Below, piece after piece: positions 32,032 to 63,620 of a stretch of 64,000 nt of DNA. The notes beneath the pieces are model-generated. The model was not told the origin of the DNA. It saw only the letters and a list, made by a program, of their open reading frames with translations, and searched no databases. Within the stretch, counting starts at the first letter, position 1, and every line of letters starts with the position of its first letter. The position numbers and the translations under genes were made by a program. The DNA comes from a virus: IMG/VR virus record IMGVR_UViG_3300001533_000699, one strand, 5' to 3'.

Positions 32032-33224
32032 ACGGATATCTTACCACAAAATTTTCAAAAGTCAAGTGCAAAAATTCCTCCTTATAGACTCTATTATGCT
32101 TCATATTGATACAAGTTGTGGCTACTATAGTGAGGACTTAACCTGTGTGAGTAATCTGGCGTAATGAAAGAGGGACTAACACGTGTGATTATGTTCTGTG
32201 TCGTTGATGTACGGTAGACCACGACAACCTTCCCTGCTTATACTTAACGTAAGGCGTAGCGTGTACGTAGACCTATATCTAACGGTATCATCGAGTGCAT
32301 TTGACTTGCCTATATCTATAAATAGGAATTTCATGTGTGTCTGCCCCACGCTTTTATGTTAAAAACAAAGGTAGCGCCGTCATCGCAGACCGACAACCAA
32401 AAAGATGGACTGTATTATGTTAAGCGAGCCCGACAGAGTAGAGACAGTGGTCTCTAACTGGCATCGCTACTCGGCTTCAGGGTATCGTCACGGTAACCCG
32501 CTACTCCCATCCATCGCCCCCAACGCAAACTCTTTACTCATATATTTTTTAGCCTGTTGAGGTAGGCTACTCTATTATACGCCTCACACCACCCGTTTGT
32601 CAACCACTAACCCAGATTTGTACCAAAGTGTAACACATCCGAACACAACGTACGGTTTCGAACACCGTTTTTAGGTAAACCCCCCCTCTCAGAGACACAA
32701 TGTTGCGTAATTGGTACAAAAAGTGGCTAATTTAATGCTATTTTGACACGTTAAGCGTTAAATTCGCCGCATCTCTTGACTTTTTCGAAATTTATGATAA
32801 AATACGGGTAAGAACTCGAAAAAACCTGTGATATTACGTAAGTCCTTACTGTGTAAGGGTTAAACGAGCCGTGATATATCATGGAGGGCAGTAGTCTTGC
32901 TATGCATGGGGCTCCTGCACCCAATTTCCTAGCGAAAAAATCCCCCCACCCCACCAACTCACCCCATAAGGGCTTACAACACTATTTGCTTGTTCTTCTT
33001 AGTGTTTTTGGTTGTTTTCTTATGGTGTTTTTGAGTACATATACCACAAATAACAAAAAAAATAGAATAATAACCACAATACAATTCACACTACGAACAC
33101 TCAATACAAACACCGCTTTCACAACGTTAAGCAGGGAATATCCCACTCACAACACATCATAACGCTTGTTATTCCTATGAAATAGGCAGAAATACAAAAC
33201 AGCGTATTTAAGAAATAGAAAACC

Positions 33225-35693: not shown

Positions 35694-35787
35694 AATTTGC
35701 ACTAGATATTATTGTGTTGGTGATGGCGATTGGTATGTTTTTGTGCGTTGTGATGCATGGACTACACTAATAAGAAAGATATATGAT

Positions 35788-36480
35788 ATGCAGAATGTGC
35801 GTATGTACTACGTTGGAGGTTTTGTTCGTGATAAAATCCTTGGCGTAGTTTCAAAAGATATAGATTTTGCTGTTGTTGCGCCGTCATATGAAGCAATGAA
35901 ATGTGAAATTGTTCGGAGGGGCGGTAGTATCTTCATAGAACACCCAGAGTACTTTACTATACGCGCTAAACTACCACAATACAATCAGGTTGCGGATTTT
36001 GTGTTGTGTCGTAAAGACGGTGAGTATGTGGATGGACGTAGGCCAGAAGAAGTTATCCATGGCACCCTTGAAGATGATTTGGCTCGTCGTGATTTCACTA
36101 TGAATGCCATTGCTATTGATGAAAACGGAACTTATATTGACCCACATAATGGTATTGAAGACCTAAATCATGGGTTGATTAGATGTGTTGGTGATACTCG
36201 CACCAGATTTACTGAGGACCACCTACGTTTGTTGCGTGCAGTTAGGTTTGCTATTACTAAGAAAATGATGTGGCATTACGATATCGTTGAATGTCTACAC
36301 GATGCTGATTTAGTAGATAATCTAAAGTATGTTGCTGTAGATAGAATTAGAAGCGAGTTATATAAGTGTTTTTTGTGTGACTCTTCTCTTACTATAGAAA
36401 TACTTGCTGAGTTGCGCTATGTTAGAGAAGCTGTATTCTCTACTGAGCTTTGGCTGAAGCCAACTACTGAGCAAAAATAA
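35788..36480 (+). CDS. cca: Class II tRNA nucleotidyltransferase (CCA/poly(A) polymerase family)
   Basis: VGGFVRD, KDIDF, DLARRDFTMNAIA and RFTEDHLRLLRAVRFA motifs. Confidence 0.88.
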   Translation: MQNVRMYYVGGFVRDKILGVVSKDIDFAVVAPSYEAMKCEIVRRGGSIFIEHPEYFTIRAKLPQYNQVADFVLCRKDGEYVDGRRPEEVIHGTLEDDLARRDFTMNAIAIDENGTYIDPHNGIEDLNHGLIRCVGDTRTRFTEDHLRLLRAVRFAITKKMMWHYDIVECLHDADLVDNLKYVAVDRIRSELYKCFLCDSSLTIEILAELRYVREAVFSTELWLKPTTEQK

Positions 36481-40855: not shown

Positions 40856-41392
40856 ATGGAGCCACCGACCACAATGTCAGAGACTGTAATTGTCAATCGT
40901 ACTGACGATACACAAATCGAAAAGTGGGCCAAACAAGCGCTCATTATGTTGGATTGCGATATTCGCACAGTGCGTATCGAGTGGAATGGACGATTTACTC
41001 GCCGTATGGGCGATGCTGGTCTGAAAAACGGTATTGGTGTTGTACGTCTGTCTAAGCCGTTGTGGCCACGAGCAACTGAAATGGACCGCCAACAAACCGT
41101 TGTGCATGAAGTGTGTCATGTAGTACAGCGATATAGACATGGGCGATTAGATACTCCGCACGGTAAAATATGGCAGCATTATATGAAAACGTGTGGGTTT
41201 CAACCACGGCGTTGTCACAGTGTTAACCTAGAAGGTTTACGACGTAATATTCCGAAATACGCTGCGAGGTGTTCATGTCAGACACATCAAATCGGACTAA
41301 TCAGAGCACGGCGAATGATGGCTGGAATTTCGTCGTATAGATGTAAGAAATGCAATACACAATTGACTTTAATTGAGGGGTATGACACATGA
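40856..41392 (+). CDS. SprT-like zinc metalloprotease
   Basis: HEVCH, HG..WQ..M and a C-terminal Zn ribbon. Confidence 0.85.
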   Translation: MEPPTTMSETVIVNRTDDTQIEKWAKQALIMLDCDIRTVRIEWNGRFTRRMGDAGLKNGIGVVRLSKPLWPRATEMDRQQTVVHEVCHVVQRYRHGRLDTPHGKIWQHYMKTCGFQPRRCHSVNLEGLRRNIPKYAARCSCQTHQIGLIRARRMMAGISSYRCKKCNTQLTLIEGYDT

Positions 41393-42510
41393 GTAAGATG
41401 ATTGTAAAAATCAAGCATATAGACGCAATCACGCCACATAATAACGCCGACGCCTTAGAAATCGCACATCTAGGTGCGTGGACCACATGCGTTAAGAAGG
41501 GTGTGTTTAATGTTGGTGATTTAGTTGTGTTTCTACCCCCCGACGCTATTCTACCGAAGTCTTTGCATCAATTTCTTGGTATCACTAAGTATTGTAGTGA
41601 AATGCCAAAGTATAGTGAAGATTATAAGCAGGGAAGGTGTCGTGTTAGAGCTGCTAGGTTGAGGGGTGAGAGGTCATTTGGTACTTTAATGACGAAGAAT
41701 GACCTATTAAAGTATGTTATGACTTACACCCCAGAAAAGTGTACTAGTTATGGTTTTATGGTCGATGATGACGTTGCTGATTTGCTTGGCATTACAAAAT
41801 ATACACCGCCAGAAAAGATTAAGAGTGGAGATGCTGCGCCAGAGAATGCATTGTTTCATCAATATACTGACATAGAACGCTATCAGAATTATCCGAAAGC
41901 AATTGATGAGGGTGAGCATGTTGTTATGCTTGAGAAGGTTCACGGCACCAACTCTCGTATTGGGTTAGTGATGTCTAATGATGATTTGGTGTGGATGTGC
42001 GGTAGTCATCGTTCTAACCGCAAACAGTTTGATGCTACTGGCGACTTATCATTGTACTGGAAACCTTTGACTTGCAATGTCGTAGATATGTTAACCGAGA
42101 TACAAAACGATACTAAAGCCGTGTCGGTTGTTTTGTTCGGAGAGATTTACGGCAGAGGCATTCAGGATATGCAATATGATGGCAATATTTCATTTGCCGC
42201 ATTTGATATCTCTGTTAATGGACAGTATCTTGATTGGCCTGCTGTGGTGAAAATGTGCGATAAACATTCCGTATCTATGGTTCCAGTTGTTTATGAAGGT
42301 CCGTTTAGTGAAGCAATACTAATGGAGCACACTGATGGACCAACTATCGTATGTGAGCAGCCGATATCCAAATTCAAAGGTAGAGAAGGGGTGGTTGTAA
42401 AACCGATAGTAGAACGACAATCTCAGTATTTGCCGAATCATGGCAGGGTGATACTTAAGAGTGTTAGTGTGGACTACCTAAACAGACGCGGTGGAACAGA
42501 TAACGCATGA
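41389..42510 (+). CDS. ATP-dependent RNA ligase (DRB0094-like)
   Basis: H.NADALE N-domain, EKVHGTN, FGEIYG, FDI, REGVVVKP and ILKSVS motifs. Confidence 0.88.
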   Translation: MSKMIVKIKHIDAITPHNNADALEIAHLGAWTTCVKKGVFNVGDLVVFLPPDAILPKSLHQFLGITKYCSEMPKYSEDYKQGRCRVRAARLRGERSFGTLMTKNDLLKYVMTYTPEKCTSYGFMVDDDVADLLGITKYTPPEKIKSGDAAPENALFHQYTDIERYQNYPKAIDEGEHVVMLEKVHGTNSRIGLVMSNDDLVWMCGSHRSNRKQFDATGDLSLYWKPLTCNVVDMLTEIQNDTKAVSVVLFGEIYGRGIQDMQYDGNISFAAFDISVNGQYLDWPAVVKMCDKHSVSMVPVVYEGPFSEAILMEHTDGPTIVCEQPISKFKGREGVVVKPIVERQSQYLPNHGRVILKSVSVDYLNRRGGTDNA

Positions 42511-49066: not shown

Positions 49067-49455
49067 CCAATAAACTAAAACCAAAACGGATAGAGGTAGA
49101 TTGTGTGTACGTATGCCCAGAATGCGGGTGCGAAACGTGGTATACTGTCCTTGAGTTGAAATACCGCAAGACATTAGAGTGTATTTGTGGTGTTAATACG
49201 CTTTTAGTCCCTGTACGTAATATTAACGTACAATACATTGGTGATGATGACGAAAAATTAAACAAGTCTGGCGAACATGAAGGGCCAGTAATACCGGTCA
49301 ATGATTTTGTATCTGCGCTTTCTAGACTAGGATGCCAAAAAACAGACGCTAAAAAACTAATAAAACAACTACAACCTAAATACAATGGTAATGACGGTGA
49401 TTTTATGAAACTTTTATTGCAGCATAGGTTGACAAATGCCACTATTGATGTATAA
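49063..49455 (+). CDS. Zn-ribbon plus RuvA-C-like helical protein
   Basis: CPECG..CICG; SAL..LG..K.DA. Confidence 0.6.
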   Translation: MTNKLKPKRIEVDCVYVCPECGCETWYTVLELKYRKTLECICGVNTLLVPVRNINVQYIGDDDEKLNKSGEHEGPVIPVNDFVSALSRLGCQKTDAKKLIKQLQPKYNGNDGDFMKLLLQHRLTNATIDV

Positions 49456-49492
49456 TATTTTGTCGTGAATAACGGATACAGGAACCAAAAAG

Positions 49493-51070
49493 ATGAATAA
49501 GAACATTTTTAACACTCAACTGAATAATGTACTGCCAGCAGACACTGTCAATGACGCTGGTGGTGTTGCGTACAATATGTCTAGTGCCGCCGCTTTAGCT
49601 CAATACGCAGTTACAGGTACATTTAATACAACTTATTATGTTAATGATAAACAACACCTACAACGTGTACAAAAACTAGCTCAAGAATGTAGTTCTGAGT
49701 TTTTGGCTAAGCTTGCTGTATATGCACGGCAAGAAGCTAAGATGAAGGATATGCCAGCGTATCTATTGGCTGTTCTTGCTGCCAGAAATGAACATAAACT
49801 ATTGCGTAAGATTTTCGATAGAGTATGCGACAATAGTAAAATGTTGTTTGGTTTTGTGAGTATTATTCGTTCTGGAGTAACCGGGCGACGTTCATTCGGT
49901 ACCGCTATCAAAAAAATGATTCAATCTTGGTTGACACAACAACATAATTGGTCACTATATCTCTCTAGTGTTGGTCATAGTAACCCATCTATGGCAGATG
50001 TAATCAAAATGGTGCACCCAAAGCCAACGAACGAGTATCAAGCGGCTATGTTTTCATATATACTAGGTAAAGAGTGTGATATTAGTAAACTTCCGTTAGC
50101 TGTTAGGCAACTAATCGTATGTAATGGCAACTTTGAAGGGGATATACCAGATGTGCCTTTTCGCGTATTGACAAACTATGATTTAAGCAAAGTGCATTGG
50201 CAACGAATAGCAACACGAATGCCTTGGAATACTTTACGACAATCATTAGTGTTGTTGGGTCGTCGCGGTGTATTTGACTCACAAGATACGGTAGAAAAAA
50301 TAGCACAGCGATTGTCTAATAAAAACGAAGTACTACAGAATAATGTATTTCCTTTTGAGTTGTTGGCAACCTGGAAAGCCACAAAGGATTGTATTCCAAT
50401 CGAAATCACAAATGCGCTATACGATGCCATGGATATTGCCACACACAAAGCGCCTCAATTCAATGGTAAGACTTTGGTCGCCATAGATACTTCGGGTTCT
50501 ATGCAGTGGGCATCATTGACCGGAGCGAGTAATAAGCCTTCTATCATAAGTGTTGTTGAAGCCGCTGCTCTTATTGCGTGTTCTATTTTGCGTAAGAATA
50601 AAACAACAAAACTTATTGGATTTGATTGTGCTCAAGTATTTAATTGTTATACATCAAACGGTATTTATGTTATGGATGATATCAGAGCACATGACAGCGT
50701 TTTTACGAATATGTCAAAGATGTATTTTAATGGTGGGGGAACAGATTGTTCGTTGCCATTCAAATACTTGCTTAGTGAAAATTTGAGAGTAGACAACATT
50801 ATAGTATTGTCAGATAATCAAAGTTGGTCTGGTACATATGGTCCTGGTTCAGCTTCATGTAATGCGTGGACACAATATAAGAAGAGTAACCCTAAGACAA
50901 GGCTTATGTGTGTAGACTTAACACCAAACCAAACAACCCAAGTACCTGACAATAAGGATGTCATAAATATTGGTGGCTGGAGTGACTCGATGTATGGTGT
51001 TATGAGCCAATTCTTCAACGAACATACAGTTGTTAACTTTGTGCAGACTATTAACAATACAGAAATATAA
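49493..51070 (+). CDS. rsr: Ro60/TROVE RNA-binding protein with vWA domain
   Basis: N.AGG.AY, TGTFN.TYY, MKDMP, HPKP; MIDAS DTSGSM, GGTD and SDNQSW motifs. Confidence 0.9.
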   Translation: MNKNIFNTQLNNVLPADTVNDAGGVAYNMSSAAALAQYAVTGTFNTTYYVNDKQHLQRVQKLAQECSSEFLAKLAVYARQEAKMKDMPAYLLAVLAARNEHKLLRKIFDRVCDNSKMLFGFVSIIRSGVTGRRSFGTAIKKMIQSWLTQQHNWSLYLSSVGHSNPSMADVIKMVHPKPTNEYQAAMFSYILGKECDISKLPLAVRQLIVCNGNFEGDIPDVPFRVLTNYDLSKVHWQRIATRMPWNTLRQSLVLLGRRGVFDSQDTVEKIAQRLSNKNEVLQNNVFPFELLATWKATKDCIPIEITNALYDAMDIATHKAPQFNGKTLVAIDTSGSMQWASLTGASNKPSIISVVEAAALIACSILRKNKTTKLIGFDCAQVFNCYTSNGIYVMDDIRAHDSVFTNMSKMYFNGGGTDCSLPFKYLLSENLRVDNIIVLSDNQSWSGTYGPGSASCNAWTQYKKSNPKTRLMCVDLTPNQTTQVPDNKDVINIGGWSDSMYGVMSQFFNEHTVVNFVQTINNTEI

Positions 51071-52278: not shown

Positions 52279-52833
52279 ATGATTAATAGATTAAATGGAA
52301 TGCGATGCTATCTGATTGGTGCTATGGACCGCACTGATGATGGTGGTGTACAGTGGCGTGAAGACATTAAAGAATTCCTACATACTAAAGGGGTAGTTGT
52401 ACTAGACCCATGTGACAAACCTATTGACATAGGACAAGAACATATAGAAGACAGAAGTGTGAGACAAACACTGAAAAAGTCTGGACAATATAACTCGCTA
52501 GCAAAAACGATGAAGACAATTCGTGTCATAGACTTACGTATGACAGACATGGCAGACTTCGTGATAGTTCACATTGACACAGACGTACATGCTTGTGGTA
52601 CATACGAAGAATTGTTTTGGGCAAACCGCTTGAAAAACCCTGTACTTATCGTTTGTAAGCAGGGAAAGGCTCAGTGTCCCGATTGGTTGTTCGGGGTCGT
52701 ACCGCACAGGCATATATTTGATAATTTTGAGCAGTTACGTGAGTATTTGGAGTATGTTGCACATAGTTATAGTGTATATCATATGCGTAGGTGGACTTTC
52801 TTTAACTACGAGAAATTAAAATGCCCTATATAA
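52279..52833 (+). CDS. Nucleoside 2-deoxyribosyltransferase-like protein
   Basis: YLIGAM....WR, DP, DL....AD and GT.EE motifs. Confidence 0.75.
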   Translation: MINRLNGMRCYLIGAMDRTDDGGVQWREDIKEFLHTKGVVVLDPCDKPIDIGQEHIEDRSVRQTLKKSGQYNSLAKTMKTIRVIDLRMTDMADFVIVHIDTDVHACGTYEELFWANRLKNPVLIVCKQGKAQCPDWLFGVVPHRHIFDNFEQLREYLEYVAHSYSVYHMRRWTFFNYEKLKCPI

Positions 52834-53129
52834 AACAAAAATTCAAAGATAAAATAGATGAATCAATACATGCTTTAGTCGATGATATTGAGCAGTGTTG
52901 TAAGGATGATGATAGAGACGCATTAAAAGGTGTGTTAAACTACACTATTACATCTATATTACTAGCAACATTTACAAAGCATGGAATAAGTTATTCTAAA
53001 TTTGCCGATGTTATTGGTACTCTAGAATGTTCAAAGCTAGAAATATATCGACGGGCAATAGCGTCATATGAAGACCGTTGTATACGCAACAACGGAGATA
53101 TAGAAGAGTTTATCCGCATGGGCCTGTAA
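52821..53129 (+). CDS. Hypothetical phage protein
   Basis: MPYIK, G.LNY.IT, G.LEC.KLE.YRR...YED....NGD; stop lies inside the tmRNA gene. Confidence 0.75.
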   Translation: MPYIKQKFKDKIDESIHALVDDIEQCCKDDDRDALKGVLNYTITSILLATFTKHGISYSKFADVIGTLECSKLEIYRRAIASYEDRCIRNNGDIEEFIRMGL

Positions 53130-53408
53130 GGTTTCGACGGGTTGTGAAAGTTTGTGACGGCATTCCGTGGTTCGTCTGATGGCCACGTAAAAATCAGACG
53201 AAAAAAGTAACTGGCACCTGCCATACTTTGGCTCTGTGCGCCTGAGCACAGGTTTCTACTTGTAGAAGCAGCTTAATCTTGTGCTACAACAAGAGCGTAT
53301 AAGCATTTGAGACAGTTTTGTTTGTTGTACAGCTTAACAACATACTATGAATGTAGATGTTACTTATAGAAGCAAAGCCGGACAACGGTTCAATTCCGTT
53401 CAGGTCCA
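53120..53408 (+). ncRNA. ssrA: tmRNA (~290 nt)
   Basis: GGGCCTG/CAGGTCC acceptor with G3.U, GGTTTCGAC, PK1 (CGTGG/CCACG and CGTCTGAT/ATCAGACG), TAACT before tag ORF GTCHTLALCA* at 53213-53245, and a T-arm. Confidence 0.9.
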
Positions 53409-53510
53409 CTGAATCTGATAAGGTGTATAATATAGAAGAAAGCCGATATCAACAAATGGTTTGAGCTTGTTCCTTTCTTTTTGTCTTAAAAATTACATAA
53501 GGAAGTATGA

Positions 53511-53852
53511 ATGAATACTAAATTAGCTAGGGCGATTATGGCCGCTGAAACAGCCAAAGCACAAGGCACACTAGACTTTAAGACGGCAACTTGGTTGGTT
53601 GCGGCGTGGGTAGCCTTCGCAGCAGAATCTGTTGTGCAATTAGCTAACCCTAATGAATACGTAGATAAGGCCGCTCTTACAGATATGTTAGAGACCAGTT
53701 GGAAACAACTTAGTGCTGTAATTGATGACATACCTATGAGTTTGTTTACTAACTTCATTTGGGTATCAGCACGTTCAAGAGTGCTATCTGTAATACCATC
53801 AGCCGTGGATTATTTGGCCACAGAACTAGATAAAGGAGAAAATCACTCATGA
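53511..53852 (+). CDS. Hypothetical protein
   Basis: First gene of a coupled membrane-protein cluster. Confidence 0.65.
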   Translation: MNTKLARAIMAAETAKAQGTLDFKTATWLVAAWVAFAAESVVQLANPNEYVDKAALTDMLETSWKQLSAVIDDIPMSLFTNFIWVSARSRVLSVIPSAVDYLATELDKGENHS

Positions 53853-54148
53853 ATTTGATTCAATTAAGCATTGTCATATTAGCAGCAGTGGGTGTTGTTA
53901 TGATGTTCGGTGACCAATTACTGGTGGTGTGGGATAAGGTTAAGTCGTTTTTTAAGTCCGCAGTACAACCTTCTCCATCGCCAGTGTCTGTAGAATTAGA
54001 CACTAACGATATGTTCAGTAAAATACGTCATCTTATTACTTTAGCAGAGCAAAGTGAAGCTGCTGGAGTAGATAAGGCTGGTGAATTACTACGTCAAGCT
54101 GCCGCTACTGCATTATTAGACAAGAAGGTTAGCGTAGTTAATGAATAA
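53849..54148 (+). CDS. Membrane-anchored protein
   Basis: N-terminal TM helix and Pro linker. Confidence 0.65.
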   Translation: MNLIQLSIVILAAVGVVMMFGDQLLVVWDKVKSFFKSAVQPSPSPVSVELDTNDMFSKIRHLITLAEQSEAAGVDKAGELLRQAAATALLDKKVSVVNE

Positions 54149-54449
54149 ACCATCTCATTATAGTAGTACTGATTTCAAATATGACTGTGCTACGATAGGT
54201 TTTATATTTGGTTTCTTGTGCGTATTCTTTAGTGAGGCTTTGTTTTCACTTGGATTCTTAACTACAGTAGGTATTCTATTAACCATAATGATGCCTTTAT
54301 CTGAAGTTCTTGGAAGTAATGATGCTGGTTGGTTAGCGCTGTTCATTATATATCCTTTAGCTATGTTCATCAACGGTGTTGTGTATGGTGGTATAGGATA
54401 TGGTATTGGTAAATTAATAACACTTTTTATAAAGGATAAAAACCCATGA
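54141..54449 (+). CDS. Multi-TM membrane protein
   Basis: Two to three TM helices. Confidence 0.55.
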   Translation: MNKPSHYSSTDFKYDCATIGFIFGFLCVFFSEALFSLGFLTTVGILLTIMMPLSEVLGSNDAGWLALFIIYPLAMFINGVVYGGIGYGIGKLITLFIKDKNP

Positions 54450-54853
54450 AGACAAAACAATTTATGGGGGTGATACTAGTTTTAGCTGCATTAGGTCTAT
54501 ACGGCGTAGACCAAGGCTATATAGTATTGCCGGATAGTATTACGCCAAAACCATCGCCACCATCTGTCTTATATGGTATTGTTATAGAAGAGACAAATGA
54601 GCGTACCCCTGAACAAAATATTGTACTGTCTTCGCCAATTGTAAGAGGACTGTTTGACAAACCAGAGCACTTTAGACCTATCGACCCAAACACAAAGGTA
54701 ACACCAGATTTACAGAAATTCAAGGATAAAGCTAAGGCTAGGGAGGGTGATGTTACATTATTCCTAATAGAACCTAATGGTACTATTCATTATGAGGGAG
54801 ACCTACCAAATACGGTTGAAGAATTTCAACGATTATTTAGGGAGATAAAATAA
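54446..54853 (+). CDS. Membrane-anchored protein, possible thioredoxin-like fold
   Basis: Signal/TM, Pro-rich linker, IEET..R.P...L motif. Confidence 0.6.
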   Translation: MKTKQFMGVILVLAALGLYGVDQGYIVLPDSITPKPSPPSVLYGIVIEETNERTPEQNIVLSSPIVRGLFDKPEHFRPIDPNTKVTPDLQKFKDKAKAREGDVTLFLIEPNGTIHYEGDLPNTVEEFQRLFREIK

Positions 54854-55584
54854 TGAATACATACGGCGTCATACCATCCGGCTATCGTACTGGTTGTTTG
54901 CCAAGAACCACCAAACCTGGAGAGTTTTGTCCATTATTTGGGTCGAGAATTCGGGTCATTCCACGTTCTGACTGGGCAACATACACAGGTAAAATCAGCC
55001 TGCGTCATTTTGTTAGAGAAATACTTAATCAGGGTCGTGTAGGTAGTTGTGCCAGCGAATCATCAACACAGTCGCTGATGATTATACGTGCATTTGCTGG
55101 TTTACCACATGTTAGTTTGAATCCTTATTTTGTATATAATACTGTTTGTGGCGGAAGAGACCAGGGCAGTACTATAGATAGTAATTTGAAGTTCTTACGT
55201 GAAGTAGGTGTCCCGCCAATATCTATATGGCCAAGAGATAAGGGGTGGCAAACTAGACCATCGGAAGAAGCAATAGAAGCCGCAAAGGATTTTCGTATTC
55301 TAGAGTTCTATGATATTAGCACTATAGAAGAAATGGTTACTGCGCTTTTCTTAGGATTTCCAGTGGTGTACGGTGCAAACGGTCATGCAGTCGTAAAGGT
55401 GGAACACCTAAATGACAGAGAAGGTTTAGATGTTAATAGTTGGGGTACTGACTGGGGCGACGGTGGTTTTGGCGTTTGGGTACCATACAGCACGATAGGC
55501 AGCAGTCTACGATATGGTGCGTTTGCCGTAAGAACTTCACTACAGAACGACAATCTATTTGATGTTGAAAGGGCGGCTATCTAA
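54853..55584 (+). CDS. Papain-like C1 cysteine peptidase
   Basis: NQGRVGSCA, GHAV and NSWG.DWGDGGF motifs. Confidence 0.88.
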   Translation: MNTYGVIPSGYRTGCLPRTTKPGEFCPLFGSRIRVIPRSDWATYTGKISLRHFVREILNQGRVGSCASESSTQSLMIIRAFAGLPHVSLNPYFVYNTVCGGRDQGSTIDSNLKFLREVGVPPISIWPRDKGWQTRPSEEAIEAAKDFRILEFYDISTIEEMVTALFLGFPVVYGANGHAVVKVEHLNDREGLDVNSWGTDWGDGGFGVWVPYSTIGSSLRYGAFAVRTSLQNDNLFDVERAAI

Positions 55585-55586
55585 TC

Positions 55587-55841
55587 ATGAGAAGGGTTGG
55601 TATAGCGTTTATCGTTATTGCTATAATTGTGTTTTTGTTTAATAAGCAGGCAAGTGCACCTAGACCACCAATACCGCCAGATAATGAAGAAGAACAAGTA
55701 GTAGATTTTGAAAAGTGGTTTCAACATCACCAACTAGAATGCGATATATGTGAACCTGGATGGCCACCACGCTTATGTACAGAAGCATGGAATAAACTTA
55801 ATGCTCAAAGACTCCACCAAAAGGAGATAGAAAATGAATAA
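55587..55841 (+). CDS. Membrane-anchored small protein
   Basis: TM helix; H..EC..C...C. Confidence 0.55.
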   Translation: MRRVGIAFIVIAIIVFLFNKQASAPRPPIPPDNEEEQVVDFEKWFQHHQLECDICEPGWPPRLCTEAWNKLNAQRLHQKEIENE

Positions 55842-56541
55842 AATATTAGGAGTTACGATATTGTTTGGTTTAGTGGTTCTGATGCTGTTTGGTCCTAGTC
55901 TTAGTTCAACACATGTAGGCGATACTCCAGACAACAACACCACACAAATAGACCTTGGTACACCACAAGTTGCTGAAGAACAACCAGAAACCTTGAATAC
56001 AACAGAGACTAAAGAAGTAGTTGCTTCTATTGGCAGTATTCGCGAGATTATAAGAAACGCACAAAATGAATTACGGTTCTTTGCTAAGGCTAGACTCGTA
56101 ACACAAGAGTGGTTTACTGCTATGGCAAAGCTTACAGCAGAAGATATGCCGCAGATACAATCACACACAAATGTTATTGAAAACCGTGAGTGGGTACCAC
56201 CTCATAAACAAGTAATTTTGGTGTTCTATCAAGACGACTACTATCAAGAACAACGAATGGTGCCACAAGCACAAAAGCTAATGGATGAAGGACACTATGT
56301 ATATAGAATTCCAGCACGACGCACAGACCTATATCATCAGTACGCGGTTACACAAACGCCGATGTGGTTGGTTGTGCGAGATAAAGAAGTAATTTACCGA
56401 CATACAAAACCACCAACCTTCCCTGCTTATGAAGAACAGGTAGATGTACCCGTTAATGTTCAGGAAACACAAATATATTACACTCCATCATCTATGCAAA
56501 AATACGTCCCGTCATCATGTGGTATCGGAGGATGCAGATGA
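55834..56541 (+). CDS. Secreted protein with thioredoxin-like domain lacking CxxC
   Basis: Signal peptide; L.F...M.P....L...Y.V..TP....RD..VI; ends CGIGGCR. Confidence 0.55.
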   Translation: MNKILGVTILFGLVVLMLFGPSLSSTHVGDTPDNNTTQIDLGTPQVAEEQPETLNTTETKEVVASIGSIREIIRNAQNELRFFAKARLVTQEWFTAMAKLTAEDMPQIQSHTNVIENREWVPPHKQVILVFYQDDYYQEQRMVPQAQKLMDEGHYVYRIPARRTDLYHQYAVTQTPMWLVVRDKEVIYRHTKPPTFPAYEEQVDVPVNVQETQIYYTPSSMQKYVPSSCGIGGCR

Positions 56542-56831
56542 ATCAACAACTTGTGGATTTGGTTACAGACTATGTGCAACGTAGGTCTTGGCGTGCGCGA
56601 AAATCAAATCATACTAGAAGAATAGTGCATATTGCGCTGTTTAATCTACAAAATGCCCAGCGTAATATACCTGTTGCTGAATTTGGACTACAGTCTTATA
56701 TAAAACATAAGGTACTAACACAACTCAAGACAACAGAATCATGGTATGTGGTGCAGTATATATTGTATTGGCTATTAGATGTTATAATAGAGTTAGTTAT
56801 TAAATGGTGGTTAAGTCAGCAGGAGAAGTAA
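56538..56831 (+). CDS. Hypothetical protein (similar to the next gene)
   Basis: C-terminal TM ending KWW. Confidence 0.55.
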   Translation: MNQQLVDLVTDYVQRRSWRARKSNHTRRIVHIALFNLQNAQRNIPVAEFGLQSYIKHKVLTQLKTTESWYVVQYILYWLLDVIIELVIKWWLSQQEK

Positions 56832-56833
56832 AA

Positions 56834-57145
56834 ATGAGCTTTGGTGATGTGGTAAAATCGGCTACAAACTACGTGTTAGAAAATTCATGGACTGCCAGAC
56901 ATAATAGCAAGCATGCCTCTCGTTTGGCAAACGCAGCTATCATGGAGATATATCTTATACCAGCTCATGAACGTAGACATATGAGTAAAAGTGATTTACG
57001 TGCTCATATCAAAGCTAAATTAAAGAAACGTAATGTTGGCAATCCAATAGTTATTACGTTGATTTTGCAAGTGTTAGTTGGTATCGTAGCTAAACTAATC
57101 GTAGATTGGTGGTGGAAAAATAAGAGAGATAATGTATGGCCATGA
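56834..57145 (+). CDS. Hypothetical protein
   Basis: C-terminal TM ending DWWW. Confidence 0.55.
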   Translation: MSFGDVVKSATNYVLENSWTARHNSKHASRLANAAIMEIYLIPAHERRHMSKSDLRAHIKAKLKKRNVGNPIVITLILQVLVGIVAKLIVDWWWKNKRDNVWP

Positions 57146-57540
57146 ATCAAAATGAGTTGATTACGCCTGACAGTTCAGGTTTTCATATAGATGATATGGA
57201 CTTCATAAGTCCGACTAAAGACCCATGCTCTAGGGAAAACCCAGATGCGTTTTGGGTTGGATATGGTAAGTTTCGTCAAGGTAAGTGGTATACTGATTTG
57301 CCTCGTGATTCTCACTCTTTGGCTGGATGGTTTTTTGGGTTTACTGAAGGTAAACGATGGAAAAAATGGTGGCAAAGTAAATCTCTATGGCTAGCTACAT
57401 GCGTGGGTTTTACGTCTGTTTTGGCGCAGGTCGATGTCGGTGTAATATCAGATAATCCGCGCATAGTGGCGTTTGCAGCGAGTACTGTCGCTGCTGCGAT
57501 AGCCACTCTGAGATTCGTCACGCACACCACAGTAAAATAA
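57136..57540 (+). CDS. Putative holin-like membrane protein
   Basis: KKWWQSKSLW followed by two TM helices ending LRFVT. Confidence 0.5.
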   Translation: MAMNQNELITPDSSGFHIDDMDFISPTKDPCSRENPDAFWVGYGKFRQGKWYTDLPRDSHSLAGWFFGFTEGKRWKKWWQSKSLWLATCVGFTSVLAQVDVGVISDNPRIVAFAASTVAAAIATLRFVTHTTVK

Positions 57541-57608
57541 TTTGTTAGGTCGGTCTTGACTTTTGGGAATTTTGGTGTAAGATACTAGTAACGAACAACG
57601 CACGTTTT

Positions 57609-57680
57609 TGCACGGTAGCACAATGGTAGTGCACCTGACTGTTAATCAGAGGGTTGCAGGTTCGAATCCTGCCTGTGCAG
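57609..57680 (+). tRNA. tRNA-Asn(GTT)
   Basis: Cloverleaf, loop CTGTTAA. Confidence 0.92.
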
Positions 57681-57718
57681 CTTGGATTTTTTTAGGACAC
57701 TAATCAAGGAACAAATAC

Positions 57719-58030
57719 ATGCAAAAACCAAAAATCATCAAGTTAGTCAGCGGAGAAACAATTGTTGCACAAGTAGAGTTTATGACAAATAAACTACATT
57801 TGACACGACCTTTGTCTCTAATTGCGATGCCGCGCCCAGACCAAAGTGGTAGAATGAATACTGCTATTACCTTGATGGATTTTATACCTGGAGTTAAGGA
57901 CGAAAAAATGGTGTTGAATAAGGATATGGTTATGCTTGTTGTAGAACCTGACGAACAAATCAAAGAGTTGTATAGTAGGTTGACAAATCCAAATCATATT
58001 GAGGTTGCTAAACCAGAATTGATAGTTTAG
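57719..58030 (+). CDS. Sm-like hypothetical protein
   Basis: KIIKLVSGETIVA pattern. Confidence 0.65.
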   Translation: MQKPKIIKLVSGETIVAQVEFMTNKLHLTRPLSLIAMPRPDQSGRMNTAITLMDFIPGVKDEKMVLNKDMVMLVVEPDEQIKELYSRLTNPNHIEVAKPELIV

Positions 58031-58036
58031 TTATTT

Positions 58037-58110
58037 GGGGTAGTGGACTAGTGGTTGATGTCATCACCCTTTCAAGGTGAAGGTCACGGGTTCAAATCCC
58101 GTCTACCCTA
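58037..58110 (+). tRNA. tRNA-Glu(TTC)
   Basis: Loop CTTTCAA. Confidence 0.9.
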
Positions 58111-58112
58111 CT

Positions 58113-58202
58113 GTGTATAAGTCAGATATTGGTTAGCTGAACTTGACTGTGAATCAAGAGGCCGTTAAGGCTGTGCGGGTTCGATTCCCGTTATACACCC
58201 CA
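58113..58202 (+). tRNA. tRNA-His(GTG) with long variable arm
   Basis: CTTGA-CTGTGAA-TCAAG, GCC-GTTAA-GGC V-arm, C73 and encoded CCA. Confidence 0.8.
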
Positions 58203-58209
58203 TATTATT

Positions 58210-58279
58210 AACGGTGTCCTCCTGGGAGAGGCGACGGATTCCAAACCCGTACGATGGCGTTCGACTCGTCACACCGTTG
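58210..58279 (+). tRNA. tRNA-Trp(CCA)
   Basis: AACGGTG/CACCGTT acceptor, loop TTCCAAA, G73. Confidence 0.75.
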
Positions 58280-58288
58280 CTTTATTAA

Positions 58289-58363
58289 CAGTGTGTAGCT
58301 CAGTCTGGCTAGAGCACGTGCCTTGGGAGCACGGGGTCGAACGTTCAAATCGTTTCACACTGA
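58289..58363 (+). tRNA. tRNA-Pro(TGG)
   Basis: Loop CTTGGGA. Confidence 0.9.
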
Positions 58364-58396
58364 CTGTATGGTTAGTATTACTTAGGGGTTCATACT

Positions 58397-58813
58397 ATGA
58401 ATTCGCAGACAGTACGAGACGAATTACTTCAGAGAGCACTATGGTTGGAGTTTCATTGGAAGAATGATGACATTACCATACAAGACGTAGCCGTAGAGCA
58501 TAATTGGTGGAGATATCTAGTAGAAAATCATAAGCGAGATATGAGAATCATAGGCCATTTTCTACTGGATGTTATTGATGATTTGCTTGAGGTAGTAGCT
58601 AAACTAGTTGGTCCTCGTGATATTGTATTTTTCCAAACGACATTACTTGAGGTCATTTCAGGACTATATGATACCATGGTAGAAAAACTCAAAGTGCCAT
58701 GGTGGGTCAAACCCTTTGCAAATAATATTCACAGAATAGTCAAGAGCGTGGTACTGCCACTGATTTTGAATTATCTAGTGCATAAGTTTGTTGCTGGAAA
58801 AATGATAGTATGA
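58397..58813 (+). CDS. Hypothetical protein
   Basis: 138-aa ORF among tRNAs. Confidence 0.6.
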   Translation: MNSQTVRDELLQRALWLEFHWKNDDITIQDVAVEHNWWRYLVENHKRDMRIIGHFLLDVIDDLLEVVAKLVGPRDIVFFQTTLLEVISGLYDTMVEKLKVPWWVKPFANNIHRIVKSVVLPLILNYLVHKFVAGKMIV

Positions 58814-58857
58814 ATGGGTTGACATTCTAAAAATCTATTGTATAATGTTTTAGAGTT

Positions 58858-58940
58858 GGCCGGGTGGCGAAATTGGTAAACGCATCGGTTTTAAGCACCG
58901 ACGCCCTAGCGGCTTGCGGGTTCGACTCCCGCCTCGGCTA
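58858..58940 (+). tRNA. tRNA-Leu(TAA)
   Basis: Loop TTTAAGC, V-arm. Confidence 0.9.
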
Positions 58941-59030
58941 CTGACGAATGCAGTAATGCTTACATATCATTGATTAGATTGACAAACAGCATTACATTTT
59001 TGTCGTCAACTTTTTACTATAGGAAAACAA

Positions 59031-59399
59031 ATGCTGACTGAAATTGCACCAATAGACGTATTTAGTGTTACTACTGGTAAAGTCGTCTATGAAAACGAAA
59101 ATCACAACGCTACTATGTATGCGTTTGATGAAGGCAGGCTCTATAGATATGTCGAGTATCGCAAACTAATTATATACACATGTATACCAACATCAGAAAT
59201 ACTTGAAAAAGCCCAGTATATTCTGAAAATGGCAGCTAAGGATAATCCTAACGTAGTTGATGCGACACATAAGCTATCGATAGATGGAGAAAACATAGTA
59301 TTGGATTTGCGTGACCGCAGCAAGTTTGTGTGCGTCAAACAAGGCAATGTGTGTGGATTGGCAATTTTAGATAGTAGCAAAGTCGGGTCCATCGTCTAG
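59031..59399 (+). CDS. Hypothetical protein
   Basis: AGGA SD; stop lies inside tRNA-Lys. Confidence 0.6.
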   Translation: MLTEIAPIDVFSVTTGKVVYENENHNATMYAFDEGRLYRYVEYRKLIIYTCIPTSEILEKAQYILKMAAKDNPNVVDATHKLSIDGENIVLDLRDRSKFVCVKQGNVCGLAILDSSKVGSIV

Positions 59400-59455
59400 T
59401 GGTAAGACTACAGACTTTTAATCTGTGTACCGGGGTTCGATTCCCCGTGGACCCA
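59385..59455 (+). tRNA. tRNA-Lys(TTT)
   Basis: Loop CTTTTAA. Confidence 0.9.
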
Positions 59456-59461
59456 CTATAT

Positions 59462-59537
59462 GGGGCGTAAGGTAAGCCGGTAGCATCCGCGAATCTTATA
59501 AATTCGTCATAGGCAGGTTCAACTCCTGCACGCCCTA
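59462..59537 (+). tRNA. tRNA-Ile(TAT)
   Basis: CGAAT-CTTATAA-ATTCG. Confidence 0.8.
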
Positions 59538-59573
59538 CTCTGTATTACACTGTCGAGTATTAGTAATAGAACA

Positions 59574-60188
59574 ATGGTTTCAGTAATAGTGCCATATACA
59601 CCGCTCACACCATCTAGAGAGCGCGCTTGGATATACACGCAAAAAAAAATTCATCAAATACTACCGGATTGTGAATTAATTGTTGCCGACATATCTGGCA
59701 ATATAAGAACATACAATAAAGCTCAAGCTATCATAGATGCTACTAAAAAAGTCACGCATGAAGTTGTTGTTGTACACGATGCTGACTGTTGGTGTAAGGC
59801 ATTACCAGCGGCTATACAAGCCATAGAAACCAACCAGTGTATGGTTGCCATACCGCATAAAGCTATCAATAATCTTAATGAGGTTTCTACTCATTGTTTA
59901 TATAATAATCTACCATGTACACATAAATACAAAACACGTGGTATTACTAAGTGTGGTTTGATAGTAGTAATGCATCGTGATGTTCTACAAGAGTTTCCAC
60001 CAGATATACGTTTTGTGGGGTGGGGACACGAGGACCATGCCTGGAGCTATATGATAGGGTCTAAGTATGAATTTTGGCTAGGCAATGGCGTTGCTTGGCA
60101 TTTATGGCATGATAGAGCGAATAAAGAGGTTGTAAATGCAAACAACAGTCAGCTTCTTCAAGCATATAAAAAAATGTACGGACCTTAA
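59574..60188 (+). CDS. Glycosyltransferase (GT2/GT7-like)
   Basis: SVIVPY, HDAD, F.GWG.ED and HLWH motifs. Confidence 0.85.
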   Translation: MVSVIVPYTPLTPSRERAWIYTQKKIHQILPDCELIVADISGNIRTYNKAQAIIDATKKVTHEVVVVHDADCWCKALPAAIQAIETNQCMVAIPHKAINNLNEVSTHCLYNNLPCTHKYKTRGITKCGLIVVMHRDVLQEFPPDIRFVGWGHEDHAWSYMIGSKYEFWLGNGVAWHLWHDRANKEVVNANNSQLLQAYKKMYGP

Positions 60189-60209
60189 CAAAATTAGTTA
60201 GGAAAAGCT

Positions 60210-60650
60210 ATGATAGTATATCTAGCATTTGATGGTGGTGGTAATGCACAAATTACACCATGTTATGCCTATACGTTGAAGATGGATGATAAGGTTGTAG
60301 GTCAAGGATATGGCGTATGTCATGATGAAAAACCAACTAGCAATGTTGCTGAATGGTCAGGATTATGGCATGGCCTTATGGCGGTTTGGCCACATATAAT
60401 AACACAGAGTAGATATTCAGACATAAAAGGTTTAGTATTATGCGGAGATAGTCAATTGGTGTTGAATCAACTGACCGGTGCTTACGGTATAACAAAACCA
60501 CATCTACAATTTTATCATGCTAAGTGCGTAGCGTTAGTCGAAAGAATTAAGCAGGAAGGTGTGCCTGTCACAATTAAATGGGCGGGTCGCGATACTAATA
60601 AGGTCGCGGATAAACTCACACACACAGCCAGAAGCATATACAAGGGTTAA
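60210..60650 (+). CDS. rnhA: Ribonuclease HI
   Basis: FDGG, TSNVAEW, GDSQLV.NQ and R..N..ADKL motifs. Confidence 0.88.
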   Translation: MIVYLAFDGGGNAQITPCYAYTLKMDDKVVGQGYGVCHDEKPTSNVAEWSGLWHGLMAVWPHIITQSRYSDIKGLVLCGDSQLVLNQLTGAYGITKPHLQFYHAKCVALVERIKQEGVPVTIKWAGRDTNKVADKLTHTARSIYKG

Positions 60651-60661
60651 AGCCAACATAT

Positions 60662-60745
60662 GGCGATGTGGCGAAATTGGTAAACGCACCACGCTTAGAA
60701 CGTGGCGGACGAAAGTCCTTGCAGGTTCGAATCCTGTCATCGCTA
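60662..60745 (+). tRNA. tRNA-Leu(TAG)
   Basis: Loop CTTAGAA, V-arm. Confidence 0.92.
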
Positions 60746-60875
60746 CTTACTATAACTAAACCAAAATGAAAAACAATGTTAAGTAACTATAAACATATAC
60801 GTATATTAGTGTCTTTACTCAAACAATATAACGAGAGAAGTTTATACAGGAGATTTAAGTGCGACATACATCGAT

Positions 60876-61196
60876 GTGATGATACACGCCAACGACATAA
60901 TGAATATAATACAACGTATGATAAACGCCAAATTTGTTTTGACTAACAGTCTACATTGCCTAATATTGTGTATAGCTTATAAGGTGCCATGCGCTGTAAT
61001 TATACGTGAAAATGAGAAATTAAACATGCCGGATAAATGGTTAGATGTATTTTCTACACTCAACACGGATTTTGTTACTGTTAAATCTATGACAGAAGGA
61101 CAGCAATGGTGGAAAAAACACGGACAATATATTCGACCACCCAAAGATGTCGAATGCGCCTACGAACTAAGTAAAAATTTAGCGGCTGTGGTGTAG
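60876..61196 (+). pseudogene. Polysaccharide pyruvyltransferase-like C-terminal fragment
   Basis: I..AKFVLTNSLH.LI...AY.VP...KW.D; N-terminal part absent (in-frame stop shortly upstream). Confidence 0.5.
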
Positions 61197-61252
61197 AGGT
61201 AGCACGTTAGCTTGCCAAGCTGGAGGTGGCAGTTCAAGTCTGCTCAGTCGCA
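61182..61252 (+). tRNA. tRNA-Gly(GCC)
   Basis: Loop TTGCCAA. Confidence 0.88.
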
Positions 61253-61406
61253 CTTGACATTTGAAAAAATTGTGTTATGACAATAGCATACAACGAGGCA
61301 CCTTTCCTGCTTATGTTTGGAGTAAAACAATGACACGCAACACCTTATCCAATAGATGTAGTAATATGTATTAGTTTACAAATTAACTATCTCTATGGGG
61401 TATAAC

Positions 61407-61955
61407 ATGAAGAATAAGACTAAGCACCAAAAGTTTTATCGATGCCCACGTACAACACAAGAGCGTCGTATTAACGGTAAGCGTAGTGAATATGGCAGAG
61501 CAAAACGAAATCAATCAAATTTAGTTAATGCTTATTATGATAAGCCTACTTGCGTACAAAAGACCTGGAAAGTCAAACGTAAGCATCAATATAGAGTAGA
61601 TGGTCGTGGTAAAAAATATCAAATCACTATAAATCCTAAAGGGTTACTTAGTGATTGGTTATTGAAACAATGGTTTGATGAGCACGATATTCCGTGTCGT
61701 TTAATACCAATATACAAATTACTGCGTAGTAAGCCACATAAACAGCGTATTAAGTATGTAGAAAGATACATAGAAAAGTATATCACGCATTATGATGGAA
61801 CTGTAGAACATTATCAGCATCCAGTACATGGATATAAATACATTCAACCAAGAGAATATGTGTATAGACATCTTATTGGATATCAACTAACTTGGTGGTG
61901 TCATAAGGACATAGATATTGATAACCTACTACGTTCATTGAGTTTGGAGGTCTAG
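61407..61955 (+). CDS. Basic hypothetical protein
   Basis: R.PRTTQERR...R..NL.NAY.D......WK..RK.QY; stop lies inside tRNA-Phe. Confidence 0.65.
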   Translation: MKNKTKHQKFYRCPRTTQERRINGKRSEYGRAKRNQSNLVNAYYDKPTCVQKTWKVKRKHQYRVDGRGKKYQITINPKGLLSDWLLKQWFDEHDIPCRLIPIYKLLRSKPHKQRIKYVERYIEKYITHYDGTVEHYQHPVHGYKYIQPREYVYRHLIGYQLTWWCHKDIDIDNLLRSLSLEV

Positions 61956-62022
61956 TGTATGCTGGTGTGCACGGCGGCTTGAAGTACCGCAGGTCTTGAG
62001 GGTTCGATTCCCTGGGCCTCCA
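61946..62022 (+). tRNA. tRNA-Phe(GAA)
   Basis: Loop TTGAAGT; slightly irregular stems. Confidence 0.75.
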
Positions 62023-62067
62023 CTTGACAATTGTAAAGATTGTGCTATAATCAAAATAGAAGTACAA

Positions 62068-62142
62068 CCTCCGTTGGTCCAGTCTGGAGTGGACGCTGCC
62101 CTGTCAAGGCAGAGAGCATGGGTTCAAATCCCATACGGGGGG
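62068..62142 (+). tRNA. tRNA-Asp(GTC)
   Basis: Loop CTGTCAA. Confidence 0.9.
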
Positions 62143-62146
62143 CTTT

Positions 62147-62276
62147 GGTGAATGATGTAAGACATACATGCATTGTAAGCCGTATGTGTAGGTTCAAGTC
62201 CTACTCTCACCGCTTTATGGTGAGATAGCTTAATTGGACAGAGCGACGAAAATTAGTCTTGCTAATTAGTCACCAA
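62147..62276 (+). pseudogene. Two degenerate tRNA-like elements
   Basis: 62147-62212 keeps a T-arm and GGTGA/TCACC acceptor without a D-arm; 62219-62276 keeps a 5' half and TCACCA end without a T-arm. Confidence 0.5.
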
Positions 62277-62279
62277 AAC

Positions 62280-62351
62280 GGGCCTATAGTACAATGGTCA
62301 GTGCATATGGTTTACACCCATAAAATGGGGGTTCGATTCCCTCTAGGCCCA
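62280..62351 (+). tRNA. tRNA-Val(TAC)
   Basis: TATGG-TTTACAC-CCATA. Confidence 0.9.
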
Positions 62352-62536
62352 CTTATGACAATGGTTTCAATGGAGAAACAGTTATGAACGACGCACTATA
62401 TATTCAATTCATTGATGAGCGCATCAAAGATGGTGAACTACTGACTGCTTTATTTCACGTTGGTATAGAGGGTATTTTACAAGAATTTGAATGTTGGTTA
62501 CAATCAAATTTCATACTAACACAGAAATAAACATAA

Positions 62537-63262
62537 ATGAAAACTTCTGCCGTATGTTGTATTAGGAATCGCAATAATATTCTAATGCAAACACTACATT
62601 CATGGTTACAACAGACAAAACCATTCGATGAAATAGTGTTAGTACAGTGGGGCGGCAAAGAACAGATACAAGATATAGTTAATGACATAGATACCCGAAT
62701 ACCGATAGCAGTATATGAAGTATTAGACGCTGATAGGTGGATATTAACACATGCATATAATCTGGCTATAAGTTTGTCTAAATATCCAGCTATATATAAA
62801 CTTGATGCAGACTATATGTTGCATCCAAGTTTTACTACACAATACCAAATCGATTACCGACCAAGGTTCTTTGCTGGTAATTGGAGAATGTATCCATCGT
62901 GTAATCAAAACACACGTAATATTAATGGGTGCGTTGTAATAAATCAACAGCTATTTTGGAATGTTGGTGGCTATAATGAACACATAGTAGATTATGGATA
63001 TGATGACAACGACTTGTATGAGCGCCTACAGGCTGCTGGATATTTACGGCTTAACATTAGTTACGGCTTAATCCAACATATACCTCATGATGATACGATA
63101 CGTGCATGTAAACACTCTAACTTACGAGGGCAAATGATTCAACAAAACCAAAAGATAGCTCATTCGCAACGATGGTCAAAAATTAATCAGTGTAGTAGAT
63201 GGTGCGTGAAGCATGTCAGTAATAACCACTATATCGTACGTAAAGTAATAAATGGAAATTAG
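62537..63262 (+). CDS. Glycosyltransferase (GT2/GT7C-like)
   Basis: KLDAD, VGGYNE...YGYDD.DL..RL and HIPH motifs. Confidence 0.85.
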   Translation: MKTSAVCCIRNRNNILMQTLHSWLQQTKPFDEIVLVQWGGKEQIQDIVNDIDTRIPIAVYEVLDADRWILTHAYNLAISLSKYPAIYKLDADYMLHPSFTTQYQIDYRPRFFAGNWRMYPSCNQNTRNINGCVVINQQLFWNVGGYNEHIVDYGYDDNDLYERLQAAGYLRLNISYGLIQHIPHDDTIRACKHSNLRGQMIQQNQKIAHSQRWSKINQCSRWCVKHVSNNHYIVRKVINGN

Positions 63263-63464
63263 CAGGGGATGTGTGTTGGTGAGTGAACTTGGGCAGCTAT
63301 TTGTAGCCATGCATCGCACTCGCATAAATAATAACAACGGATGGAGTGGCATAGGGTTTAATGGTGAGAGTATTGTGTCTCAAAACCCTGAATTTGTATC
63401 TAAGTCTATAAATGTGTATATTAACCAAACATATAGCGATGTTGCAGACGGTTCTGCCGCGTGA
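63252..63464 (+). CDS. Hypothetical protein
   Basis: Overlapping start; W.GIGF.G....S.NP; stop lies inside tRNA-Gln. Confidence 0.55.
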   Translation: MEISRGCVLVSELGQLFVAMHRTRINNNNGWSGIGFNGESIVSQNPEFVSKSINVYINQTYSDVADGSAA

Positions 63465-63506
63465 CTTTGAATCACGTTGTTTAGGGTTCAACTCCTTACG
63501 TCGCTG
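63435..63506 (+). tRNA. tRNA-Gln(TTG)
   Basis: CGTGA-CTTTGAA-TCACG. Confidence 0.85.
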
Positions 63507-63509
63507 CTT

Positions 63510-63578
63510 GCCGACGTAGAGTGGTCTCAACTACACATTGGTAATGTGGGGTTCCCGATTCGATTTCGGGCGTTGGCT
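63510..63578 (+). tRNA. tRNA-Thr(GGT)
   Basis: GCCGACG/CGTTGGC acceptor, loop TTGGTAA, short D-arm. Confidence 0.7.
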
Positions 63579-63620
63579 TTGTATAGTTTTTCAATCACAA
63601 TCAGCTAAGGATGTATAGGA

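Follow-up and report, generated by a model that had tools for sequence, protein, structure and literature searches.

The stretch of DNA analysed here, hereafter the window, comprises 64,000 nucleotides (nt) of a virus recorded in IMG/VR as IMGVR_UViG_3300001533_000699. It is part of a 158-kb phage contig, and its sequence was extended to ~68 kb via L066. The window carries 16 tRNA genes, called by ARAGORN, and one transfer-messenger RNA (tmRNA) gene, called by ARAGORN and Rfam. At five of these 17 RNA genes, the coding sequence (CDS) upstream on the same strand stops inside the RNA gene. An earlier note, made from the sequence alone, had proposed that tRNA maturation removes the stop codons of these five genes from their mRNAs and thereby couples tRNA processing to the tagging of the encoded proteins in a phage that has its own tmRNA. 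In this study, the five overlaps were compared with their counterparts in relatives and with other viral contigs. They are best read as a common packing accident of phage tRNA regions, unlinked to the phage's own tmRNA.

The five overlaps

All five overlaps were confirmed on the plus strand. The RNA genes start at 53120, 59385, 61182, 61946, and 63435 according to ARAGORN and Rfam, and the upstream open reading frames (ORFs) end at 53129, 59399, 61196, 61955, and 63464, respectively. The stop codon ends at nt 10 of the tmRNA, nt 15 of tRNA-Lys, nt 15 of tRNA-Gly, nt 10 of tRNA-Phe, and nt 30 of tRNA-Gln. A cut at position +1 of the RNA would remove, together with the stop codon, the residues MGL (tmRNA), GSIV (Lys), AAVV (Gly), LEV (Phe), and SDVADGSAA (Gln). 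The remaining six RNA genes of the window with a CDS within 150 nt upstream are separated from it by gaps of 6 to 94 nt. The arrangement is thus present in the sense of Hudson et al. (2014); four of the five CDSs are well supported, and the fifth, 60876-61196, is a remnant.

The tmRNA gene (53120-53411) encodes a standard one-piece tmRNA (RF00023; 108.8 bits against an Rfam cut-off of 47), as also judged from alignment and folding. It has a tRNA-like domain with a G3-U70 pair, pseudoknot 1, and the canonical resume context UAACU/GGC. The tag, (A)GTCHTLALCA, has a hydrophobic end, and its stop codon sits in a hairpin loop. The reading AGTCHTLALCA given in the earlier note was correct, as shown by the resume context, the position of the stop, and the G3-U70 pair. 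A candidate tag in the +1 frame was rejected since its resume context is wrong and the frame is closed in the related phage G002. In the window, L048, and L049, this +1 frame (53215-53277) is open for 20 codons and terminates after EAA; its openness is probably a coincidence. The 3' CCA of the tmRNA is not encoded, and an encoded CCA is likewise missing from most tRNA genes of the window. An enzyme of the CCA-adding/poly(A) polymerase family and an RNA ligase are encoded at 35743-36480 and 41389-42510. The four overlapped tRNAs are tRNA-Lys(TTT) (59385-59456; Rfam 68.8 bits), tRNA-Gly(GCC) (61182-61253; 61.4 bits), tRNA-Phe(GAA) (61946-62023; 32.7 bits), and tRNA-Gln(TTG) (63435-63507; 38.6 bits, with a cloverleaf fold). 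A further tRNA adjoins tRNA-Gln at 63510-63580; neither ARAGORN nor Rfam called it in this sequence, and in L050 it was called as tRNA-Thr(GGT).

Upstream of the tmRNA lies a gene for a DUF6899 protein of 102 amino acids (aa) (52821-53129; Pfam PF21840, E = 2e-23), whose TAA is nt 8-10 of the tmRNA. tRNA-Lys is preceded by an orphan CDS of 122 aa (59031-59399; coding score 24) with an AGGA ribosome-binding site (RBS), whose TAG is nt 13-15 of the tRNA; no real homologue of its product was found among 1.84 billion representatives. The ORF at 60876-61196, whose TAG is nt 13-15 of tRNA-Gly, shares 67% identity with the last 106 residues of an intact 270-aa polysaccharide pyruvyl transferase in L050. 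It is a 5'-truncated remnant, and its translation is doubtful because the homology upstream is decayed and contains a stop, and because an RBS is missing. tRNA-Phe is preceded by a gene for a conserved basic phage protein of 182 aa (61407-61955; ORF opening at 61395), whose TAG is nt 8-10 of the tRNA. This protein has 13 homologues and no Pfam or PHROG family; its Atlas matches, at 0.8 or lower, are leads only. Taken together, Pfam, PHROGs, and Atlas gave nothing reliable on the function of the 182-aa and 122-aa proteins. The fifth gene is a 70-aa CDS (63252-63464), the last nine residues and TGA of which are encoded by nt 1-30 of tRNA-Gln. The four ORFs with homologues, namely all but 59031-59399, are under purifying selection, with nonsynonymous divergence (pN) of 0.14-0.26 against synonymous divergence (pS) of 0.61-0.90. 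The five upstream genes (DUF6899, the orphan, the pyruvyl transferase fragment, and two uncharacterised genes) include no component of the rescue pathway, and searches of Pfam and PHROGs revealed no HNH, GIY-YIG, or related nuclease family among them.

Transcription of the overlapped RNA genes

Promoters were searched for by consensus match and with a phage-trained position weight matrix (PWM). The promoters of the phage are strong TTGACA-16-TATAAT elements, found in the region at 49429, 57556, 58819, 61254, and 62024. The sigma70-type promoter at 49429-49456 (plus strand, as are the others described here; 12/12 consensus positions, PWM score 23.7) is the nearest strong one upstream of the run from the Ro60 gene through the DUF6899 gene to the tmRNA. 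The strong promoter at 58819-58846, supported by consensus and PWM, would serve the unit of tRNA-Leu(TAA), the 122-aa ORF, tRNA-Lys, and tRNA-Ile through to tRNA-Gly. Directly 3' of tRNA-Gly, a promoter at 61254-61281 (PWM score 23.5) would drive the 182-aa gene and tRNA-Phe, and directly 3' of tRNA-Phe, a strong promoter at 62024-62051 (12/12) would drive tRNA-Asp, the YrlA-like RNA, tRNA-Val, several ORFs, tRNA-Gln, and tRNA-Thr.

No sigma70 or sigma54 promoter specific to any of the five overlapped RNAs was found, and none above background lies within 110 nt of them; tRNA-Met, tRNA-Asn, tRNA-Leu(TAA), and tRNA-Asp each have one. On this promoter map, each overlapped RNA is therefore most likely excised from the same transcript as the preceding gene. 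RNase P cuts at tRNA position +1, and tmRNA tags the products of mRNAs that lack a stop codon (non-stop mRNAs). Given co-transcription and this known biochemistry, some non-stop mRNA and some tagging should follow cutting by RNase P.

Several other elements were observed in these units. An extended, imperfect hairpin with a T run behind it (58943-59010; z = -2.1) lies between tRNA-Leu(TAA) and the 122-aa gene and is possibly a terminator or attenuator. An ORF of 13-14 codons with a good RBS (~61330-61374) precedes the 182-aa gene, is conserved at the DNA level in L050 and L699, and may be a leader element. The 13-bp motif CCTTCCCTGCTTA is dispersed over both strands, with 15 copies at one mismatch or fewer in 68 kb (for example, at 32228, 33933, 40844, 56417, and 61301). 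The Ro60 gene (49493-51070) encodes TROVE and vWA domains. A YrlA-like Y RNA lies at 62145-62279, between tRNA-Asp and tRNA-Val; it scores 39.7 bits, below the cut-off of 69, with a fold z of -4.2. A second Y RNA candidate lies past the window end (L066, 9763-9879). Pairs of Ro60 and Y RNA are already known in phages (PMC4201824). A host match, sought in the genome contigs and among cultured phages, was not found.

Fate of the overlaps in relatives

Close relatives keep two of the overlaps, those with the tmRNA and tRNA-Gln; the Phe and Gly overlaps are absent there. The DUF6899-tmRNA overlap is identical base for base in L048 and L049, at 64-65% protein identity. Distant DUF6899 homologues end near an NGD motif with no tmRNA behind them, and the G002 tmRNA is preceded by a different gene, which stops 5 nt short of it. 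The overlap of the 70-aa gene with tRNA-Gln is retained in L050/L697 at 74% aa identity, and the G002 homologue of this gene has the same end point and no tRNA. In L071 the 182-aa gene stops 8 nt short of tRNA-Cys, in G002 it stops 229 nt short of tRNA-Phe, and in L070 and G004 it has no tRNA nearby. The intact pyruvyl transferase gene of L050 has no tRNA behind it. Homologues that stop before the tRNA, which the earlier note had named as speaking against coupling, are thus found for two of the four genes that have homologues; for the other two, they occur among distant homologues.

Junction alignment showed that tRNA-Phe was deleted in L050, L697, and L699, with the gene upstream kept. What remains is a stub: the ten 5'-terminal bases, which include the TAG, and part of the D and anticodon arm, now fused to the promoter downstream. 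Because this stop-bearing stub outlived the tRNA, the Phe overlap is, as read from these junctions, old, yet the 182-aa gene persists without a tRNA to cut it.

The tmRNA gene of G004 (L058; ~15540-14690, minus strand) is split by an inserted gene with a helix-turn-helix domain and endonuclease VII (PF02945, E = 3.9e-19), which separates the 5' part from the region encoding the tag (AEYNGILACAA). No group I intron was found in it at the Rfam gathering score. The first nt of this tmRNA (G) comes from the TAG of the upstream ORF.

Overlap rates in other viral contigs

A baseline was obtained with one pipeline, combining ARAGORN and a codon-model gene caller, from several hundred viral loci chosen by tRNA/tmRNA sequence patterns and from the tRNA regions of 57 long contigs. 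Homologous junctions were merged before counting; the statistics ignore phylogeny, and recoded phages may be among the background. The gene caller is a simple codon model, which found three of the four annotated overlaps of phage T5. In unrelated viral contigs, overlap was found at 56/354 independent CDS-to-tRNA junctions (16%), rising to 27% among junctions within 20 nt. The window, with 5/11 junctions overlapping, exceeds this rate (binomial p = 0.02); its tRNAs alone (4/10), set against the rate of tmRNA-positive phages, gave p = 0.085. Its overlaps are far above the bacterial rate, given below, and only modestly above that of phages. Overlap status was mixed inside protein families of the background loci. 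The largest gene families ending in tRNAs across phages resemble HNH or homing endonucleases, like hegC and hegD of T5, and 11 of the 13 members of one overlap.

Overlaps in the baseline peaked at +10 (24/56). A stop triplet stands at nt 8-10 in 52% of 477 tRNAs, and it was not enriched in overlapped tRNAs (39/68) compared with others (166/326). TAA at nt 8-10 of the tmRNA is also a common variant, present in 40 of 290 tmRNA 5' ends. The comparison at nt 8-10 therefore revealed no adaptation of RNA 5' ends to supply a stop codon. The overlapping frame was the earliest-stopping frame in 47/78 cases.

The overlap rate was the same in phages with their own tmRNA (21/118) as in near-complete phages without it (14/67; p = 0.70), and T5, described below, points the same way. 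Because nearly all hosts have tmRNA, this null result does away with a link to the copy encoded by the phage but leaves tagging itself untouched. tRNA overlaps seemed to be enriched beside tmRNA genes (37-46%), but this was rejected as an artefact of permuted tmRNA calls of ARAGORN counted as tRNAs; after correction, the comparison was 13/77 versus 32/209 (p = 0.72).

Comparison with known systems

In mitochondria, excision of tRNAs from a polycistronic transcript sets the ends of mRNAs and sometimes removes letters of the stop codon. Mitochondria restore such stops by polyadenylation, whereas bacteria send such mRNA to trans-translation; tRNA punctuation is a comparison of how the arrangement works only. 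Phage T5 (AY543070) resembles the window in having tRNAs interleaved with small genes, some of which end in tRNAs: T5.057, hegD, hegC, and T5.069 end 6, 23, 14, and 24 nt inside tRNA-Met, Gln2, Ser2, and Asn, respectively. T5 has no tmRNA. Of the four T5 genes that overlap, two encode HNH homing endonucleases, whereas none of the five in the window recognisably does.

Hudson, Lau and Williams (2014; PMC4131195) described overlaps of this layout, in which an upstream same-strand CDS ends in a tRNA or tmRNA gene, and predicted that maturation yields a non-stop mRNA. That survey covered bacterial genes, not phage tRNA regions, and counted 250 overlaps in 115,660 t(m)RNA genes with Pfam-positive CDSs only, against 5/17 RNA genes in the window. 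In part of the strains of Carsonella, which has a compacted genome, smpB stops in ssrA (PMC4131195). There the upstream gene is the tmRNA partner and a feedback loop is possible, whereas in the window it is DUF6899. In arfA, RNase III cleavage generates a programmed non-stop mRNA and a tagged product (cited in PMC4131195); this circuit is conserved, and what is tagged is a rescue factor. In the window, conservation of the overlap varies from gene to gene, and the proteins are unlinked to rescue. The window overlaps lie outside the programmed arfA or smpB type, because none of the upstream genes encodes a rescue component and the layout shows no association with tmRNA. A literature search turned up no experiment that tests whether tRNA overlap leads to tagging.

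Discussion

We consider it probable that the overlaps arose by deletion-driven compaction of co-transcribed gene-tRNA units, and that tagging is a tolerated by-product and not a dedicated circuit. Units of promoter, gene, and tRNA would be squeezed by deletions and by gene gain or loss. A gene that loses its own stop codon would be read on into the next tRNA until a stop triplet occurs; ordinary tRNA 5' ends supply one at nt 8-10 or 13-15, and short C-terminal extensions would be tolerated. Full-length protein would be translated from the precursor while the tRNA is still unfolded and uncut. RNase P cleavage at +1 would then leave the upstream mRNA without a stop, and tmRNA of the host or the phage would rescue its last ribosomes and tag what they had made. 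The overlap would persist because its cost is low. Compaction, offered as the alternative in the earlier note, fits better than coupling. Deletions are seen in action at tRNA-Phe, where stub and gene were kept. Compaction is also favoured by the baseline overlap in unrelated contigs, the commonness of stops at nt 8-10 and their lack of enrichment in overlapped tRNAs, the missing tmRNA effect, the T5 overlaps without tmRNA, the mixed status within families, the unrelated cargo among overlapped genes of relatives, and the CDS-CDS junctions of the region, 11 of 16 of which overlap.

Several observations weigh against compaction as a complete account. In the window phage and its relatives G002, G004, and L071, 25/53 junctions overlap (47%), about three times the baseline and above the 18% of other tmRNA-bearing phages (p = 1.4e-4). 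The CDS-CDS overlap rate of these four is ordinary among the genomes tested, so general compaction alone leaves the excess unexplained. All four carry a rescue factor: a tmRNA in the window phage, G002, and G004, and an RF-1-domain protein in G002 and L071. Moreover, the DUF6899-tmRNA and 70-aa gene-Gln overlaps survived large synonymous divergence. The tRNAs of the four relatives sit singly among cargo genes, with 43/53 junctions within 20 nt, and their overlaps run through different gene/tRNA pairs of unrelated functions (sulfotransferases, DegT, fucosyltransferase, SpoU, nucleases).

Such an excess would be expected if extra rescue by tmRNA or an ArfB-like RF-1 protein made non-stop mRNA cheaper, so that overlaps accumulate, or if the non-stop load kept the rescue genes in place. 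This would be a permissive link and not regulation of particular proteins. We regard it as unlikely, though the likeliest of the alternatives: the 26 other tmRNA-bearing phages show no excess, tmRNA-free phages reach 31-50% (G045, G051, T5), and the four phages with the excess are relatives and hence not independent samples, in which cause and shared ancestry cannot be told apart. Dedicated regulation, in which tRNA maturation acts as a timer, the stop is removed, specific proteins are tagged by the phage tmRNA, and feedback operates before ssrA, is improbable. In its favour, co-transcription is likely, and three phages share the DUF6899-tmRNA overlap, as two lineages do the Gln overlap. Elsewhere among viral loci, a standard tmRNA is seldom overlapped (6/84, with a single shared base in half of these), and the G004 tmRNA takes its first G from the upstream TAG. 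Against this, the five proteins share no common function, one is a remnant, homologues persist without overlap, the G002 tmRNA follows another gene, and persistence of a few-codon overlap is expected without selection. A Carsonella-type feedback loop is absent because DUF6899 is not SmpB and smpB was not found in G002 or G004. It is similarly improbable that a timer works across the lineage, with about half of the cargo genes before a tRNA losing their stop at maturation and the phage's own tmRNA, with its unusual tag, recycling the ribosomes and setting protein fate. That no non-stop mRNA arises in practice, whether through separate transcription of the tRNAs or for want of translation of the ORFs, is very improbable. 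The truncated 60876-61196 without an RBS and the low Rfam scores of tRNA-Phe and tRNA-Gln are in its favour, but the promoter distribution around the RNAs and the purifying selection on four ORFs speak against it.

Of the coupling proposed earlier, co-transcription is likely, whereas a purposeful link to the phage's own tmRNA is not supported, given equal rates with and without tmRNA and the four overlaps of T5. The comparison with other tRNA-rich phages that the earlier note had called for placed the window modestly above the baseline, with no effect of tmRNA.

The layout and the prediction of non-stop mRNA were already known (PMC4131195, T5); this study adds the baseline for phages, the excess in one lineage, and the tRNA stub that still bears the stop. 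Phage tRNA regions overlap at about one in six CDS-to-tRNA junctions, far above bacterial chromosomes, and as a single instance the overlaps of the window are ordinary. Annotators should neither trim nor drop genes that end in tRNAs. Infection may place a small non-stop load on the host rescue system, and the threefold excess in this lineage offers a way to test why certain phages have tmRNA or ArfB-like factors.

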